In this document: piece by piece, positions 44,965 through 51,258 of the stretch
Layout of the letters: each line of letters begins with the position of its first letter
Position numbering within the stretch: the first letter of the stretch is position 1
IMG/VR virus record: IMGVR_UViG_3300048803_000048
Coordinates: 1-51,968 of that record
Source: a virus
Lineage: Duplodnaviria > Caudoviricetes
Direction: 5' to 3' (one strand)
Length of the DNA: 51,968 nucleotides
Notes under the pieces: generated by a model
Database searches by the model: none
What the model was told of the DNA's origin: nothing
The model's input: only the letters and a program-made list of their open reading frames with translations
Program-made: the position numbers and the translations under genes

Positions 44965-45125
44965 GGGAAAGTCATTGCTTAATTACTGAATTAAGTTACG
45001 TCTGAAAAATCAGGAATGATTTTTAAATTTTATTGCCTGTTAGTGGTTACGTAAAATTTTTAAGACCTAACTGATTGAAATTTAAAAGGATAGTTGCACC
45101 CCAATAAAGCGGGGTGCAATTTTTT
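44965..45125 (+). ncRNA. Candidate novel structured ncRNA (~160 nt)
   Basis: GTATTTATA motif at 44955, no ORF, several helices, two GUUACGU motifs, ends in a terminator. Confidence 0.5.
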
Positions 45126-45126
45126 T
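45094..45126. terminator. Intrinsic terminator
   Basis: TTGCACCCC-AATAAAGC-GGGGTGCAA-TTTTTTT. Confidence 0.85.
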
Positions 45127-46330
45127 ATAGGGGGTAGGAATACTCCATGTCGAGATAGTTGGTTAATATTATTTCATTGTCTCGAATTTCTTTTACATAA
45201 TTAGGTAAAAGTGGAATTTTACCACCGCCACCAGGTGCATCAATTACGTATTGCGGTACTGCATATCCACTTGTAAAGCCACGTAATCCCTTAATAATAT
45301 CAAGTCCTGTCTGTATTGATGTTCTGAAGTGTAAAGAGCCGGGAATTGGGTCGCATTGATATATGTAATATGGTCTAACACGAACACTAAGCAAACCCTT
45401 ATTAAGCCTTCTGAAGGTTTCTATATTATCATTAATCCCTTTCAATAAAACGCTCTGTGACCCCAATGGAATGCCTGCATCAGCCAACATGTTACATGCC
45501 AATCGAGTTTCTTCCGAAAGTTCGTCAGGATGGCTGAAATGTATACTCATGTAAAGCGGATGATACTTCTTCAAGATATTCATCAACTCTGGAGTTATAC
45601 GCATAGGCAGAACTACGGGTACTTTAGTTCCAATACGTATTATTTCTACATGTTTTATGTTACGTAATCTATGTAATATGTATTCTATTTGGTCGTCACG
45701 TAAAGTCAAAGGGTCACCACCAGAAACAATTACATCACGAATTTCGGAATGACTTTCAATATATTGAAAACCCAATTCCCATTGAGATTTTGTTGCGGTT
45801 ATATGGTTTTCTTTTGAAACCATATGACTTCTCGTACAATACCTACAATAAGTACTGCAAAAGTTCGTAATCAAAAATAATGCCCTGTCGAGATATCGAT
45901 GAACAATATTTGGAACAGGCGAATACTTTCCTTCATCGAGAGGGTCTTCTTTCTCACCTTTAATCTGATTTAATTCACTTACCGTAGGAATAATTGTTTT
46001 ATATAATGGATGGTCCGCAGATAGTGTATCCAATAAATAAACAAAATACGGTGTTATTCTAAATGGTAAATGATTTACTGGCATATCAATAATAGTACCG
46101 TTCTTTTTCTTACTCAATACTTGTATAAGTTTTTCGGTGTTGGTAATACTGTTTATAATTTGCCATTTCCAATCATTCCAATTTTCAAGGGTACTGCCTT
46201 TAAAATTCTCGTCAATAAAAAGTTTTAATTTAATTTTTTGAAGCAAGGATTTACTATCCTTGCATTTCGCAGGATAATCATCACTACATTCTGATTCATT
46301 TTGAGACGGTTGTAAATTTTGTTCGTTCAT
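45125..46330 (-). CDS. kamA: KamA-family radical SAM enzyme (lysine 2,3-aminomutase-like)
   Basis: DWKWQ, FRITPY, EDPL.E, HRY.DR, CSTYCRYCTR, SGGDPL, RIGTK.P, QSVLLKG.ND, RPYY.YQCD, PGGGGK (PLP lysine); TAATTTTG promoter at 46378-46385. Confidence 0.92.
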   Translation of the reverse strand: MNEQNLQPSQNESECSDDYPAKCKDSKSLLQKIKLKLFIDENFKGSTLENWNDWKWQIINSITNTEKLIQVLSKKKNGTIIDMPVNHLPFRITPYFVYLLDTLSADHPLYKTIIPTVSELNQIKGEKEDPLDEGKYSPVPNIVHRYLDRALFLITNFCSTYCRYCTRSHMVSKENHITATKSQWELGFQYIESHSEIRDVIVSGGDPLTLRDDQIEYILHRLRNIKHVEIIRIGTKVPVVLPMRITPELMNILKKYHPLYMSIHFSHPDELSEETRLACNMLADAGIPLGSQSVLLKGINDNIETFRRLNKGLLSVRVRPYYIYQCDPIPGSLHFRTSIQTGLDIIKGLRGFTSGYAVPQYVIDAPGGGGKIPLLPNYVKEIRDNEIILTNYLDMEYSYPL

Positions 46331-46824: not shown

Positions 46825-46861
46825 AAAAATAAAAATATTTTAAAAATAAATTGATATTTGC

Positions 46862-46891
46862 TTGTATTTATAATTTTAATGCATATATTTG
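46862..46891 (+). promoter_or_regulatory. Bacteroidota sigma-A-type promoter for the leader/tRNA transcript
   Basis: TTG (46862-64), 19 nt, TATATTTG (46884-91), matching the -33/-7 consensus TTG/TAnnTTTG. Confidence 0.7.
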
Positions 46892-46925
46892 CAAGGATTT
46901 TGTTTTAATAAATGTTTTGAAGAAG

Positions 46926-47000
46926 ATGAAAAGATTAACAAACATACAACCCCAACCGCAGCAACATCCACAGATGTCTGAATGGGGAAGCTATGCTTAA
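46926..47000 (+). CDS. Putative attenuator leader peptide MKRLTNIQPQPQQHPQMSEWGSYA
   Basis: Run CAA CCC CAA CCG CAG CAA CAT CCA CAG matches the amino acids of the downstream tRNAs. Confidence 0.75.
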   Translation: MKRLTNIQPQPQQHPQMSEWGSYA

Positions 47001-47037
47001 ATCTTTTTATCAAAAAGAAGTTTTAAGGTTAGACATG

Positions 47038-47072
47038 AAACCCCATTCGCAAGGATGGGGTTTTTGTTTTTT
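47038..47072 (+). terminator. Attenuator terminator immediately before the tRNA array
   Basis: AAACCCCATTC-GCAA-GGATGGGGTTT followed by a T-tract; its 5' arm is also complementary to leader GAATGGGG. Confidence 0.85.
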
Positions 47073-47079
47073 GATATAT

Positions 47080-47173
47080 CGGGTAGTGAGCGAGTGGATG
47101 AAGCTGCTGGTCTTGGAAACCAGTGACGGCACAAAGGTAGTGTCGTCCGTGGGTTCGAACCCCACCCGCCCGA
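47080..47173 (+). tRNA. tRNA-Pro(TGG) with an atypical long variable arm
   Basis: Stem CTGGT/ACCAG, loop CT-TGG-AA; 8-bp variable stem; GGTTCGAAC; C1:G72, A73; no encoded CCA. Confidence 0.75.
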
Positions 47174-47295
47174 AGTAGTTGAAGTTAAATTACCTGCACG
47201 TGGTAACTACTGCACAATCGAAAGATTGACTAAAAATTTAACGAGTTCTTTGACATGATACGATTAATTTTTATATATTTACAAAAAATAAATGT

Positions 47296-47805
47296 ATGAG
47301 AAATATAAAAGATGTTTTATTTGAGGCAAAAAGAAAAGGATACCATTCTGATATGAATGGCAATATATTTTCATCAAAAAAGAAAATTGCATTACGTAAA
47401 TCAAATCAAAATAGATATAATTTTACTATTAGATTTTATGGTGAAAGAGTAACAATTGCCGTACACAAATTTATTGGTTATTTGAAATTCGGTGATGAAA
47501 TATTTAAAGAAGGTATTGAAATAAGACATTTAGATGATAATTCATTAAATAATTCATGGATTAACATCGGTATTGGAACACATATTGAAAACATGGGTGA
47601 TATTCCAAAAGAAACAAGAATTAAAAGAGCAGTTAATGCTACTAACTATGTTAGACGTTTTAACGATAATACAGTAAAAGAAATAATTAATGATAGAAAT
47701 AATGGATTTACATATGTACAATTATGTGATAAATATAATACAAGCAAATCTACATTAAGTTACTTTTTCAATAATGCTCAATATAGTAAAATAAAAACAG
47801 AGTAG
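47296..47805 (+). CDS. HNH homing endonuclease inside the tRNA array
   Basis: VHKFI...EIRHLDDNSLNN...I.IGT..EN..D and a C-terminal HTH. Confidence 0.85.
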   Translation: MRNIKDVLFEAKRKGYHSDMNGNIFSSKKKIALRKSNQNRYNFTIRFYGERVTIAVHKFIGYLKFGDEIFKEGIEIRHLDDNSLNNSWINIGIGTHIENMGDIPKETRIKRAVNATNYVRRFNDNTVKEIINDRNNGFTYVQLCDKYNTSKSTLSYFFNNAQYSKIKTE

Positions 47806-47874
47806 TTGGGGAGTTGGTCACCCCGCCACATTTGGGATGTGGAGAACTCGTGAGTTCGAATCTCACCTACTCTA
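47799..47874 (+). tRNA. tRNA-Pro(TGG)
   Basis: Acceptor AGAGTAG/CTACTCT; loop TT-TGG-GA; GTTCGAAT. Confidence 0.85.
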
Positions 47875-47876
47875 CT

Positions 47877-47953
47877 GTGCTAAGTGTAGATGTTGGCATT
47901 CTTCACCTGACTGTGAATCAGGGTTTCGTGGGTTCGATTCCCATTTAGCACCA
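47877..47953 (+). tRNA. tRNA-His(GTG) with an atypical D-arm
   Basis: GTGCTAA/TTAGCAC; CCTGA-CT-GTG-AA-TCAGG; GGTTCGATT. Confidence 0.7.
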
Positions 47954-48039
47954 AAATATCGTTTAAAAATACGATAATTTAAAAATATCGTGTGTAGATA
48001 GCATAATTAGTATTTATGCATTGAAAATACGATAATTTT

Positions 48040-48116
48040 CGGGGTGTAGTTCAGTTGGTTAGAATGGGTGCTTTGGGAGCATCAGGTCGCAAATTCGAGT
48101 TTTGCCATCCCGACCA
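48040..48116 (+). tRNA. tRNA-Pro(TGG)
   Basis: CGGGGTG/CATCCCG-A-CCA; loop TT-TGG-GA. Confidence 0.9.
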
Positions 48117-48119
48117 TAT

Positions 48120-48196
48120 GGTGAGCGTAGTTCAGTTGGTAGAACACCAGATTGTGGTTCTGGTAGTCGCAAGTTCAAATCTTGTCGCTCACCCCA
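48120..48196 (+). tRNA. tRNA-His(GTG)
   Basis: G-1:C73, loop TT-GTG-GT, CCA encoded. Confidence 0.95.
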
Positions 48197-48237
48197 AATC
48201 GGCAATAAATTAATAAAATTGCCAAAAATGTGATATT

Positions 48238-48378
48238 ATGAAAAAGGGTAACAAACAAAATGCCTTCCTTAATGGCGAATGGGCAGCACACATGCGTAAA
48301 TGGGGTAAATCTTTCACCGCCAAAATACGCAGAACTGTTGACAAAAGGGTTATTAGGGAAGAACTTAAAAATACATGA
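48238..48378 (+). CDS. Small basic 46-aa protein within the tRNA array
   Basis: MKKGNKQNAFLNGEWAAHMRKWGKSFTAKIRRTVDKRVIREELKNT. Confidence 0.55.
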   Translation: MKKGNKQNAFLNGEWAAHMRKWGKSFTAKIRRTVDKRVIREELKNT

Positions 48379-48424
48379 TAAAATAAAGTCTGACTTTAAA
48401 TTATCACGTATATAAGTGATATAT

Positions 48425-48497
48425 TGTCTCGTGGTGTAATGGTTAACATGTTTGACTCTGAATCAAAAGAGTGCAGGTCCGACTCCTGCTGAGACAA
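48425..48497 (+). tRNA. tRNA-Gln(CTG)
   Basis: TGTCTCG/TGAGACA; loop CT-CTG-AA; variant T-loop TCCGACT. Confidence 0.85.
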
Positions 48498-48595
48498 CAA
48501 AAGTGATGAACATAAAAAACCTGGTAATCCAGTGCCGTGGGTTTAAAAGATATCTAATCAACCCACACGGTTAGAGCACCTGCATCACTCAATAT

Positions 48596-48678
48596 AGTCC
48601 TTTGGCAGAATGGTCATTGCATCAGTCTTTGAAGCTGACACCCCAACGGGTTTGTAAGTTCGAATCTTACAGGGACTA
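48596..48678 (+). tRNA. tRNA-Gln(TTG) with a long variable arm
   Basis: AGTCCTT/AGGGACT; TCAGT-CT-TTG-AA-GCTGA; variable arm ACCC-CAAC-GGGT; GTTCGAAT. Confidence 0.75.
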
Positions 48679-48726
48679 CTAAATGTTCTTTGAATTGTCG
48701 TATTTATTATTATCTTTGCAAAACAT

Positions 48727-48800
48727 TGACCTTTGGTGTAATTGGTTAACACATCTGATTTTGATTCAGGCGAGTGTAGGTTCGAGTCCTACAAGGTCAA
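48727..48800 (+). tRNA. tRNA-Gln(TTG)
   Basis: TGACCTT/AAGGTCA; loop TT-TTG-AT; GGTTCGAGT; TATCTTTG promoter-like element at 48711-48718. Confidence 0.9.
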
Positions 48801-49275
48801 CTTTTTTACGACAACGACAATGTGTCGGTAATGTTGAATTACAGTTAGGACATAAAATTCGTAAGTTTTCTAAACGATGGTCCGAATTACGACCATTTAT
48901 ATGGTCAAGTATCAGACTCATGTGTTCCCCGTGCCAATTTTCGTCTTGTCCACATTTTTCACAAATTCGTTCTTTTAATCCTTCTTCATACAAACGATTT
49001 TTAATATTACCCACATTTGTATATGTTGACCCCGACACTAATATTTTACTTGTAAGAAATCTTCGAGAATCATTTAATTTACTGTTTGTTCTTGAATATC
49101 TTTCCACATCAGTTTCAAAATGAGAAATATTAATGTTATATAGTTTTACGTATTTTTTTAATATCGGTCTTGAATTGCCTTTAATACCCAACCCCATTTT
49201 TTGTAAAACTTCAGTGTAATTCTTTGAACATTTAACTATGGGTTCGAAATTTTCCTTTAAATATTTTGCTTTCAT
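48766..49275 (-). CDS. HNH endonuclease whose 3' end is antisense to tRNA-Gln
   Basis: CEKCG...LILDHING...DHRLENLRILCPNC. Confidence 0.9.
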   Translation of the reverse strand: MKAKYLKENFEPIVKCSKNYTEVLQKMGLGIKGNSRPILKKYVKLYNINISHFETDVERYSRTNSKLNDSRRFLTSKILVSGSTYTNVGNIKNRLYEEGLKERICEKCGQDENWHGEHMSLILDHINGRNSDHRLENLRILCPNCNSTLPTHCRCRKKVDLVGLEPTLA

Positions 49276-49594: not shown

Positions 49595-50041
49595 ATGGGA
49601 TACAACTTATTCTTAGACGATGTTCGGATGCCGAAGGATACCTTCGACTACATGAAACTTCCAATTTATATTTCAGTCGATTGGTCCATCGTCAGGAATT
49701 ACTATGCCTTTGTACAGATAATTGAAGGTAAAGGTATTCCGGATATTATTAGTTTCGACCACGACCTTGCTGATGAACATTATGACCCAAAAATTGTTGG
49801 TACTGAATCGTATGAACAAATCTACGACATGTTTGACGAAAAGACCGGATACCATTGTGCCAAGTGGCTTATTGACTATTGTATTGACAACAATAAAAAA
49901 CTTCCTGCAGATATTTTGATTCATTCAATGAATCCTGCAGGAAGTATGAACATTAAGTCATTATTCGAAACCTATTTTAAGGTTTATAATATAGACCAAT
50001 CGGGAGATATTTTTATCTTATCTACAAATAAGCGTATTTAA
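49595..50041 (+). CDS. Cyclic-phosphate-processing receiver-like domain protein
   Basis: LFLDD.R.P...ISFDHDL...TGY..AKWL...IHSMNP.G. Confidence 0.75.
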   Translation: MGYNLFLDDVRMPKDTFDYMKLPIYISVDWSIVRNYYAFVQIIEGKGIPDIISFDHDLADEHYDPKIVGTESYEQIYDMFDEKTGYHCAKWLIDYCIDNNKKLPADILIHSMNPAGSMNIKSLFETYFKVYNIDQSGDIFILSTNKRI

Positions 50042-51258
50042 AGTTTAATACCAAGCACTAATATGTCATCAGTTTGGTCGTTAGTGCCTTTCCATCTTAA
50101 TAATCTTTGTTCGAGTAATTGACACTGATATTCCAATCCAAGATGCTGAAAAGAATTTAATAACGTGAAGAAATTATCTTTTAATAACTTTTTATTTTCT
50201 TTCCCGCCAAATTGGTCAACATAACCATCACTATACATGTAAATCACATCATCAGTTTCATATTTAATTTCTTGTGTAGGGAATATTTTTTCAATTCTAT
50301 AATCTACACCGCCAACTAAATATGGATTACCTTTATATGTGGTAATCTTTTTCTCGCCCTTCATCAAATATAATAATGACCTCTGGCATCCACAGTAATA
50401 TATTTTCTTTTCGGTTTTATTAATTGATATCAATGCTAAATCAATTCCATCTTGATATCCATCACCGGATGACTGATTTAATACTTTACAAATATGCGCA
50501 TCAAGCCTGGTTAATATGTCTGTAGGATTATTGGTACAAGTTTCATCTGCCAAAATCTCATTTAAGAAATTACTGCCAAGCATTGCTAATAGCGCACCAG
50601 ACACACCATGTCCCGTACAATCAGCAACAACAACAATAATATTGCCATTTTTTTCGGCAAACCAATAAAAATCACCACTAACAATATCTTTGGGTTTATA
50701 AAATACAAATGCTTCACTAAAATTTTTTAATAAGAAATCAATTTTTGGGAGTGTTAGTGCTTGTATTCTTGCCGCAAATATAATGCTTTGGGTTATGGTC
50801 TTCTTTTCTTCTTCAATTATCTTATATGACCTTTCTAATTCTTTGTTCACATTTTCCAAATTAGCCACTTCATCCCTATACAGATTTTTTAAATACGCAT
50901 TTTCAATTGAAAACGGTAAAAAAGATAAATGGTCATTATTGACATAATCATCAAATCCTTCTTTAAGTATCTCAATAGCAAATTCATCATTAATTGTACC
51001 TGAAAGCAGAATACACAAAATGTCTGGATATGTGCTTTTTGCAAGCCTAAATGCTTCCAAAGAATTAAATCCTTCAGGTAAAACATGACTACATATCATC
51101 ACATCAATCTTATTGTTTTCTAATATAGAAATGAAGGATTTTCTATCGCTTGCAATTAATATATCTGTGGTATATTCGTTGTTTTTCAATAAATTAGAAA
51201 TCAACTCTGCTTGGATTTCAGAGTTATCCAATAGAAGTATTTTAGCAGAATCTTTCAT
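50038..51258 (-). CDS. Receiver domain plus SpoIIE/PP2C (RsbU-like) serine phosphatase
   Basis: N-terminal REC fold; PKDIVSGDFYW, VADCTGHGVSGA, YSDGYVDQFGG, QTDDILVLG. Confidence 0.9.
   Translation of the reverse strand: MKDSAKILLLDNSEIQAELISNLLKNNEYTTDILIASDRKSFISILENNKIDVMICSHVLPEGFNSLEAFRLAKSTYPDILCILLSGTINDEFAIEILKEGFDDYVNNDHLSFLPFSIENAYLKNLYRDEVANLENVNKELERSYKIIEEEKKTITQSIIFAARIQALTLPKIDFLLKNFSEAFVFYKPKDIVSGDFYWFAEKNGNIIVVVADCTGHGVSGALLAMLGSNFLNEILADETCTNNPTDILTRLDAHICKVLNQSSGDGYQDGIDLALISINKTEKKIYYCGCQRSLLYLMKGEKKITTYKGNPYLVGGVDYRIEKIFPTQEIKYETDDVIYMYSDGYVDQFGGKENKKLLKDNFFTLLNSFQHLGLEYQCQLLEQRLLRWKGTNDQTDDILVLGIKL

Follow-up and report, generated by a model that had tools for sequence, protein, structure and literature searches.

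The window analysed here, that is, the 51,968 bases that make up the entire viral record IMGVR_UViG_3300048803_000048 (Caudoviricetes), contains a single array of eight tRNA genes, the only ones it encodes, preceded by a short leader that we propose to be a leader-peptide attenuator. All features of the leader and of its array lie on the + strand. A composite promoter candidate (46857-46891) combines Bacteroidota-type -33 and -7 elements with a GTATTTAT motif; the -33 element is, by sequence match, either TTTG at 46857-60 or TTG at 46862-64, the -7 element is TATATTTG at 46884-46891, separated from the TTG by a 19-nt spacer, and the GTATTTAT motif, at 46864-71, may be a phage late promoter. 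A first-pass annotation of this DNA had placed the promoter at 46862-46891, where the TTG and TATATTTG are indeed present. Next comes an open reading frame (ORF) of 24 codons (46926-47000; ATG at 46926, TAA at 46998-47000, A at both -3 and -6 of the ATG), nine consecutive codons of which (46947-46973) specify Gln, Pro or His. This sensing run is the only stretch of at least six such codons in the six frames of the window, in which about 1e-4 nine-codon runs are expected by chance. Segment 1, the putative protector (46950-46954), overlaps the CCC Pro codon of the run and is predicted to be paired with a probability of 0.95 in the absence of a ribosome; segment 2, the antiterminator strand (46980-46987), is decoded as Glu-Trp-Gly and is brought to segment 3 by an inner hairpin (46996-47027; -7.6 kcal/mol) whose sequence is poorly conserved. 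Segments 3 (47041-48) and 4 (47053-60) belong to the hairpin (47037-47064) of an intrinsic terminator (47037-47072), the T tract of which ends at 47072, 7 nt before the body of the first tRNA at 47080. The pairings 1:2, 2:3, and 3:4 can each fold, and the leader as a whole folds with a z-score of -4.2 (0/200 shuffles equally stable). The ORF and its run, the four segments, the inner hairpin, and the terminator are thus all found where the first-pass annotation had seen them. No leader, T-box, or small RNA family reached its Rfam gathering score between 46400 and 49400, and matches to PyrR, Phe_leader, and BTnc231 were set aside as generic hairpins.

Behind the terminator we found the full tRNA complement that had been reported: three tRNA-Pro(TGG) genes (47079-47174, 47799-47875, and 48040-48116), two tRNA-His(GTG) genes (47877-47952 and 48121-48196), one tRNA-Gln(CTG) gene (48425-48498), and two tRNA-Gln(TTG) genes (48596-48679 and 48727-48801), referred to below as the PHQ block after the one-letter codes of the three amino acids. 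The tRNA-Pro at 47079-47174 and the tRNA-Gln at 48596-48679 have long, type II-like variable arms; the best BLAST matches of this tRNA-Pro are phage tRNA-Ser genes, yet it shows C1:G72 and A73, and the same long-armed tRNA-Pro is carried by a relative, L002. Each block therefore has ordinary and unusual bodies for one anticodon. The array also holds an HNH endonuclease gene (47296-47805; PF13392, below cut-off), an insertion absent from L002; HNH-like inserts occur at other positions in the tRNA blocks of relatives. A basic ORF of 46 amino acids (48238-48378), kept in L002 and without a Pfam match, lies between tRNA-His and tRNA-Gln. The motif at 47245-47256, with a second copy at 48685, is one that we take to be boxA-like.

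To what extent is this arrangement conserved? Three relatives were found through the 113-aa protein encoded upstream; in two of them, L002 and L003, the leader has been retained and differs by synonymous changes. A first loose DNA scan was rejected, its at least 119 stretches being mostly chance matches. A leader-only DNA query, built solely from the QHP..EW codons (tRNAs were part of no query), retrieved 65 viral loci, 40 of which have a tRNA within 800 nt; a terminator is present in 40/40 of the latter and in 0/25 of the loci without tRNAs, three of which end within 90 nt. The 40 PHQ blocks, which include close relatives and do not represent 40 independent events, yielded 78 Pro, 54 His, 82 Gln, and one Arg tRNA, along with two undetermined calls and one spurious tmRNA call, so that 214/215 identifiable tRNAs are Pro, His, or Gln. 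The sole exception, an Arg(ACG) tRNA, is the first gene in the block of L176, and a CGC codon has been acquired by the leader there; the second block in this phage is devoid of tRNA-Val, and the codon run of its leader is devoid of Val.

Lack of conservation had been named beforehand as a possible refutation, but the leader ORF is conserved in 37 distinct PHQ leaders as well as in the first relatives. Pairwise differences at codon positions 1, 2, and 3 amount to 0.05, 0.12, and 0.28 (19 PHQ leaders), the third position varying most, and indels within the codon run of the aligned leaders are in frame. The CCC codon occurs in 34/37 PHQ leaders, compared with 79/599 Pro codons in the window genes, and two of the three leaders without it carry a changed segment 2, a pattern that is expected if CCC serves the 1:2 pairing. 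As to other codon choices, His is written CAT in 40/40 codons of the 37 leaders and never CAC, which makes up 55/201 His codons in the window genes, and the Pro codon in the middle is CCG, a rare one, in 22/30 cases; both CAT and CCG would be wobble-read by the tRNAs of the block. The match of codons to single isoacceptors, judged by eye, is patchy: L002 has a Pro-CGG tRNA together with a CCG codon, L167 a Pro-CGG call without one.

The alternative pairings are conserved as well. Across 36 aligned PHQ leaders, pairing is kept in 96.2% of cells for helix 2:3 and in 98.6% for helix 3:4, and four of the 36 sequences change one base jointly in segments 2, 3, and 4, with the same pair restored in 2:3 and in 3:4; these four may reflect one inherited change. 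Segment 2 is predicted to pair upstream in 37/37 PHQ leaders. Other leader families have different hairpin sequences and retain the complement in the leader. We modelled the effect of a ribosome by masking its footprint on the nascent RNA, with 12 settings of start, end, and reach. In 12/12 settings the antiterminator formed with the A site at Asn6 or earlier up to Pro15 or Gln16, and never from Met17 on; in these folding models the antiterminator window ends at the last Gln codon or one codon before. The modelled stall geometry thus fits stalls at Gln, Pro, and His codons, and together with the co-varying pairings it bears out this part of the first-pass proposal. In four PHQ leaders the stop codon has come to lie right at segment 2 through a short insertion, and the logic is unaltered. 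When 73 leaders with two to ten amino-acid types and no truncation were pooled over families, 838/1,282 codons (65%) inside the predicted window matched the block, versus 135/604 (22%) outside it.

The PHQ unit is, as judged from the sequences, one of four such units per genome, a system wider than the first-pass annotation had seen. In G002, and likewise in G005, a complete genome, tRNA genes are sorted into four blocks, PHQ, DEVLAW, KY, and TCISFGNR (one-letter codes), each of which opens with a promoter, a short ORF written in its own amino acids, and a terminator. Jointly the four cover 19 amino acids, with a few Leu, Met, and other tRNAs outside. In several relatives, L193 (near 1141), L230, L239, L254, and L297, a tmRNA gene follows or lies within the DEVLAW block and adds ribosome rescue there. 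A query following the hairpin logic and blind to the peptide gave 112 loci, 94 of them within 400 nt of a tRNA, and revealed further matched partitions (PATGVR, QTFVL, LEAMVWD, RMDW, NFISGLC, TRI, and HFKLW); some leaders span nearly all amino acids and stand ahead of near-complete arrays. A third query, consisting of a terminator plus a boxA-like motif and blind to peptide, antiterminator, and tRNA, gave at least 120 loci, and the following figures apply among the matches listed. Of 104 distinct hits, 77 precede tRNAs, and these 77 have a leader ORF in 76 cases, a promoter match in 50, and an antiterminator above control in 52; the corresponding numbers for the 27 hits without tRNAs are 17, 5, and 10, 14 of the 27 being short or truncated loci. 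This set added the partitions EYIG, YLMDR, WHFSK, and Leu only, and the coverage of block amino acids by the leader was 0.93 (n = 63), versus 0.69 after permutation (best of 20,000, 0.79).

For a systematic comparison, leaders were called automatically if they began with ATG at a start score of 0.75 or more, spanned 15-62 codons, and had a terminator no more than 60 nt and a tRNA no more than 700 nt away; this gave 206 calls, 129 of them distinct; nothing was removed by hand, and some false calls remain. An A at -3 of the start is found in 93/129 leaders, a -7 promoter match upstream of 103/129, compared with 11.7 in shuffles, and a boxA-like motif within 60 nt of the terminator in 44/129. In the 116 called leaders whose blocks hold at least two amino-acid types, a fraction of 0.976 of the block types recurs in the leader beyond residue 4; shuffling gives 0.589, and the best of 5,000 permutations 0.682. 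With one leader per peptide cluster (28 clusters, a count that overstates independence because some clusters are related), enrichment was 0.188 vs 0.013 and coverage 0.933 vs 0.705, and 0/100,000 permutations reached the observed enrichment or coverage. The expectation that leaders track the content of their arrays therefore holds in homologous and non-homologous leaders alike. Sequence and comparison establish what the parts are, that they are conserved and co-vary, and, in many independent leader families, that leader and block match.

Codon-matched leaders also occur in a distant phage, GenBank LR756511.1 (595 kb; 42% G+C in the region), where two were found on the - strand (L461, 12619-12702, at about 437618-437701 of the record, and L459, 7831-7938, at about 277830-277937); the promoter and ribosome-binding signals of both look to be of the sigma70 and Shine-Dalgarno type. 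The first, GTG-started and 27 codons long, contains each of the six Ser codons as well as codons for Leu and Tyr, has Shine-Dalgarno-like and sigma70-like signals, and ends 23 nt upstream of a terminator behind which follow four tRNAs for Ser, five for Leu, and two for Tyr. The second, of 35 codons, has no Leu, Ser, or Tyr beyond residue 3 and includes every one of the 16 amino acids served by the 24 tRNAs that its terminator precedes. These leaders divide the long-armed tRNAs (Ser, Leu, and Tyr) from the others. Within the GenBank phage set, no relative was found by BLASTN with the leader or by TBLASTN with a DEVLAW leader; no terminator-leader was called before the small tRNA cluster of Flavobacterium phage immuto_2-6A, nor was one found, with ATG starts only, in the tRNA regions of LR756508.1 that were examined. 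Bacterial and archaeal genomes, searched with one narrow terminator-plus-boxA pattern outside which other hairpins fall, gave two hits and no cellular example. The 362,763-bp contig L335, from a Paceibacterota bin, was rejected as a cellular case; it has the same tRNA blocks as the viral G005 and is probably a mis-binned phage. We also rejected L334, from a Patescibacteria genome, which has no leader ORF and stands ahead of tRNA-Ile and tRNA-Ala, as in rRNA operons; its terminator-like hairpin (1150-1183) is directly followed by the boxA-like motif, in the leader of this rRNA-operon-like region.

On this evidence from sequence and folding models, the PHQ block is very probably under the control of a ribosome-mediated transcription attenuator with a tRNA output and with negative feedback for each block. 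The conservation of the leader, its tracking of block content, the co-variation, and the stall geometry all support the attenuation interpretation of the first-pass annotation, under which the leader would be translated, the ribosome would stall, and read-through would follow. Host RNA polymerase would start at 46896-46905, and a ribosome would follow it into the leader. With enough charged tRNA-Pro, -His, and -Gln, the ribosome would reach codons 17-25 and cover segment 2, so that 3:4 pairing terminates transcription. A ribosome lingering in codons 6-16 would instead block segment 1; segment 2 would then pair with segment 3 while segment 4 is still to be transcribed, and the polymerase would continue through the tRNA block. 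These additional tRNAs would then relieve the stall and shut off their own synthesis, in a negative feedback loop, and relatives would divide the code over four such loops. The signal, we think, is a shortage of usable charged tRNA, with about equal weight given to host anti-phage nucleases and to the ordinary demand of infection as its cause. Extra tRNA is of little help against pure amino-acid starvation and of much help against tRNA loss, and the Tyr tRNA is a known nuclease target. As for Lys, tRNA-Lys is the target of PrrC (PMC10264068). Because Lys and Tyr, both nuclease targets, have a block of their own and extra tRNA helps against loss, a possible role in counter-defence is favoured. 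More tentatively, and with somewhat less than an even chance of being right, the leaders of large phages could form a protein-free, multi-channel monitor of the tRNA pool that answers tRNA-cleaving defences and was rebuilt many times, under at least two host transcription types; each leader would then test one subset of the code and turn on none but the corresponding replacement tRNAs, with a separate channel for Lys and Tyr.

Several observations weigh against the attenuator as we describe it. The first-pass expectation that stalling frees segment 2 for segment 3 was upheld in the masked folding at the sensing codons, but only until segment 4 is present: from then on equilibrium favours the terminator (P 0.95-1.00) at all sensing positions. 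The switch must therefore be kinetic, with the polymerase past the T tract first. The 5' arm of the terminator is still paired without a ribosome in 55/73 leaders, counted over all families, and the protector step is therefore not general. Stalls at Asn6 or Ile7 would, according to the model, antiterminate too (cross-induction), and the modelled switch of LR756511.1 is not clean. The antiterminator found in 113/129 called leaders is a partly circular count, the unbiased figure being the 52/77 among the matches listed for the terminator-plus-boxA query. With regard to the codon match, the block has no GGG tRNA for the CCC codon of the leader; the L125, L129, and L136 leaders keep codons for tRNAs that their genomes have lost, so that tracking runs mostly from block to leader; and the KY leader of G002 fits, in raw fraction, the eight-amino-acid block (0.54) better than its own (0.38). 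Finally, there are internal promoter candidates in the array of the window and in 15/31 PHQ arrays, and the last tRNA-Gln has a candidate of its own; in this genome they may allow some tRNAs to bypass the attenuator.

The last point bears on a first alternative, in which the attenuator is real but, in this genome, governs only the first tRNA or few tRNAs, most of the supply coming, whatever the speed of decoding, from internal host-type and late-type promoters or from boxA-dependent or phage-encoded antitermination. Of the three internal candidates proposed in the first-pass annotation, the one at 48711 proved to be a full match to TAnnTTTG, the one at 47274, before the HNH insertion, has one mismatch, and the one at 48010 is not of the host type and corresponds to a GTATTTAT motif. 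The first is part of a composite candidate before the last tRNA (TTTG, GTATTTAT, and TATCTTTG; 48690-48718), one of only two places on the + strand of the window where both -33 and -7 match in full; the GTATTTAT motif at 48010-48017, shared with L002, lies 30 nt ahead of the third tRNA-Pro and is a possible internal late promoter. Among PHQ arrays, host-type internal matches are present in 6/31 and late-type motifs in 12/31, which speaks for this alternative, but 16/31 have neither, and most internal motifs are more than 400 nt from a tRNA, beside inserted ORFs. The boxA-like motifs at 47245 and 48685 could be taken in its favour, but as they are downstream of the terminator they could act only after read-through. 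Moreover, leaders match whole blocks, not the first genes alone. A TATTTAT motif, mostly as GTATTTAT, precedes about 18 of the 41 window genes by 14-51 nt on the sense strand, including many virion genes; GTATTTAT may thus be a late promoter, and its core, read in reverse complement, gives the late promoter TATAAATA of T4. It lies inside the leader promoter in 26/31 PHQ arrays, and early and late transcription would therefore both pass the attenuator. We consider it unlikely that the attenuator is restricted to the first genes.

A second possibility is that the leader reports general translation stress, through arrest by the nascent peptide or through Pro-specific elongation factors of the EF-P type. 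The leader is Pro-rich, a lysine 2,3-aminomutase-like gene is located nearby (45125-46330), and Salmonella mgtCBR is reported to be controlled by Pro-rich leaders (PMC3641672). However, the run has no consecutive Pro codons, and the peptides of other families are unrelated to it, each being written in the amino acids of its own block, which general stress would not need; this possibility is therefore very improbable. That the ORF-tRNA match arose by chance or from the way in which loci were collected is hardly credible: although two queries chose on leader motifs, many loci are close relatives, and some clusters are related, tRNAs were in no query, the terminator-plus-boxA query was blind to peptide and antiterminator, none of the 100,000 cluster permutations reached the observed values, and at least ten partitions and a distant lineage match.

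The setting is that of an uncultured jumbo phage with a T4-like major capsid protein, portal, and terminase. The capsid protein shows at most about 32% identity with those of GenBank phages over most of its length, with an uncultured 484-kb phage and Flavobacterium phage immuto as best matches, and related viral records reach 334-363 kb and are rated complete. The promoter type, which follows the Bacteroidota consensus TTTG/TANNTTTG (PMC6847099), points to a Bacteroidota host. Three metatranscriptomes contained only 6-9% of the query words. The gene at 45125-46330, on the - strand and close to the Pro-sensing leader, encodes a radical-SAM lysine 2,3-aminomutase-like protein (KamA/EpmB type), and any connection with EF-P modification would be guesswork. 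A second HNH endonuclease gene (48766-49275, - strand) overlaps the last tRNA on the opposite strand with its 3' end, and the region adjoining the array (49595-51258) carries a cyclic-phosphate-processing receiver-like gene (cREC_REC) and a response-regulator/SpoIIE phosphatase fusion.

How does the proposed attenuator compare with known systems? Leader-peptide attenuators of amino-acid operons include trpL, hisL, pheL, and pheM, and the multivalent thrL and ilvGMEDA. As in these, a promoter is followed by a short ORF of regulatory codons, by predicted 1:2, 2:3, and 3:4 pairings, and by an intrinsic terminator, stalling would lead to read-through, and one leader could sense several amino acids. 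Among the structural elements of a trp/his/thr/ilv attenuator, the promoter, codons, terminator, co-varying antiterminator, and, in the models, stall geometry are recognizable. Unlike them, the leaders are phage-borne, their output consists of tRNAs, the very molecules whose supply would be sensed, and they share out the code among blocks, some single leaders covering nearly all 20 amino acids; since the controlled genes are tRNAs and not enzymes, transporters, or synthetases, they fall outside the narrow amino-acid-operon class. T-box riboswitches bind uncharged tRNA directly, without an ORF; they also link antitermination to the state of a cognate tRNA, and no T-box family was among the Rfam matches up to an E-value of 5-10 at the locus. 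In Salmonella mgtP, likewise a short ORF rich in Pro codons, transcription of mgtCBR is reported to rise when charged tRNA-Pro is predicted to be low (PMC3641672), but that leader, as described there, is chromosomal, senses one amino acid, and controls protein genes of an Mg2+ transport and virulence operon. The trn operon of Anabaena is also a large tRNA array on a mobile replicon, silent until translation stress, but is repressed by TrcR: initiation of a single all-or-none operon is controlled by a protein, without codon-specific sensing, and neither 'attenuat' nor 'leader' occurs in the accessible portion of that report (PMC10272220). Phage tRNAs have been described as a counter-defence against anticodon nucleases (PMC10264068, PMC11555353, PMC12409363), and the replacement of specific tRNAs is, from the available parts of these papers, a motive common to both; the first of them concerns the tRNAs carried and their loop mutations, and 'attenuat', 'leader', and 'promoter' are absent from its available text. 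The accessible part of the moraphage paper (PMC12619734) mentions neither leaders nor attenuation, and trp attenuation is the only one mentioned in that of PMC13602947. A search of the open-access literature, outside which most subscription papers fall, returned no account of tRNA genes, or of phage tRNA arrays, being controlled by leader-peptide attenuation. We know of no earlier case of classical attenuation acting on tRNA genes, and, judging from sequence, we would class the system as leader-peptide attenuation of the classical kind whose output, tRNA genes, is new.

These leaders form a class of tiny ORFs missed by annotation pipelines and would offer compact codon-specific sensors for the engineering of Bacteroidota. 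Each of them would also be a ready-made reporter for the tRNAs that fail in infection or when a particular defence system is at work. The reason why phages carry tRNA genes has been an open question for more than 50 years (PMC10264068), and such leaders would put it within reach of experiment. Attenuation of tRNA genes would close a direct feedback loop on tRNA supply and would explain why these genes are sorted by amino acid in these genomes; a leader spelling out the codons of the block it precedes suggests that phage tRNAs may be made on demand, against a shortfall in decoding.

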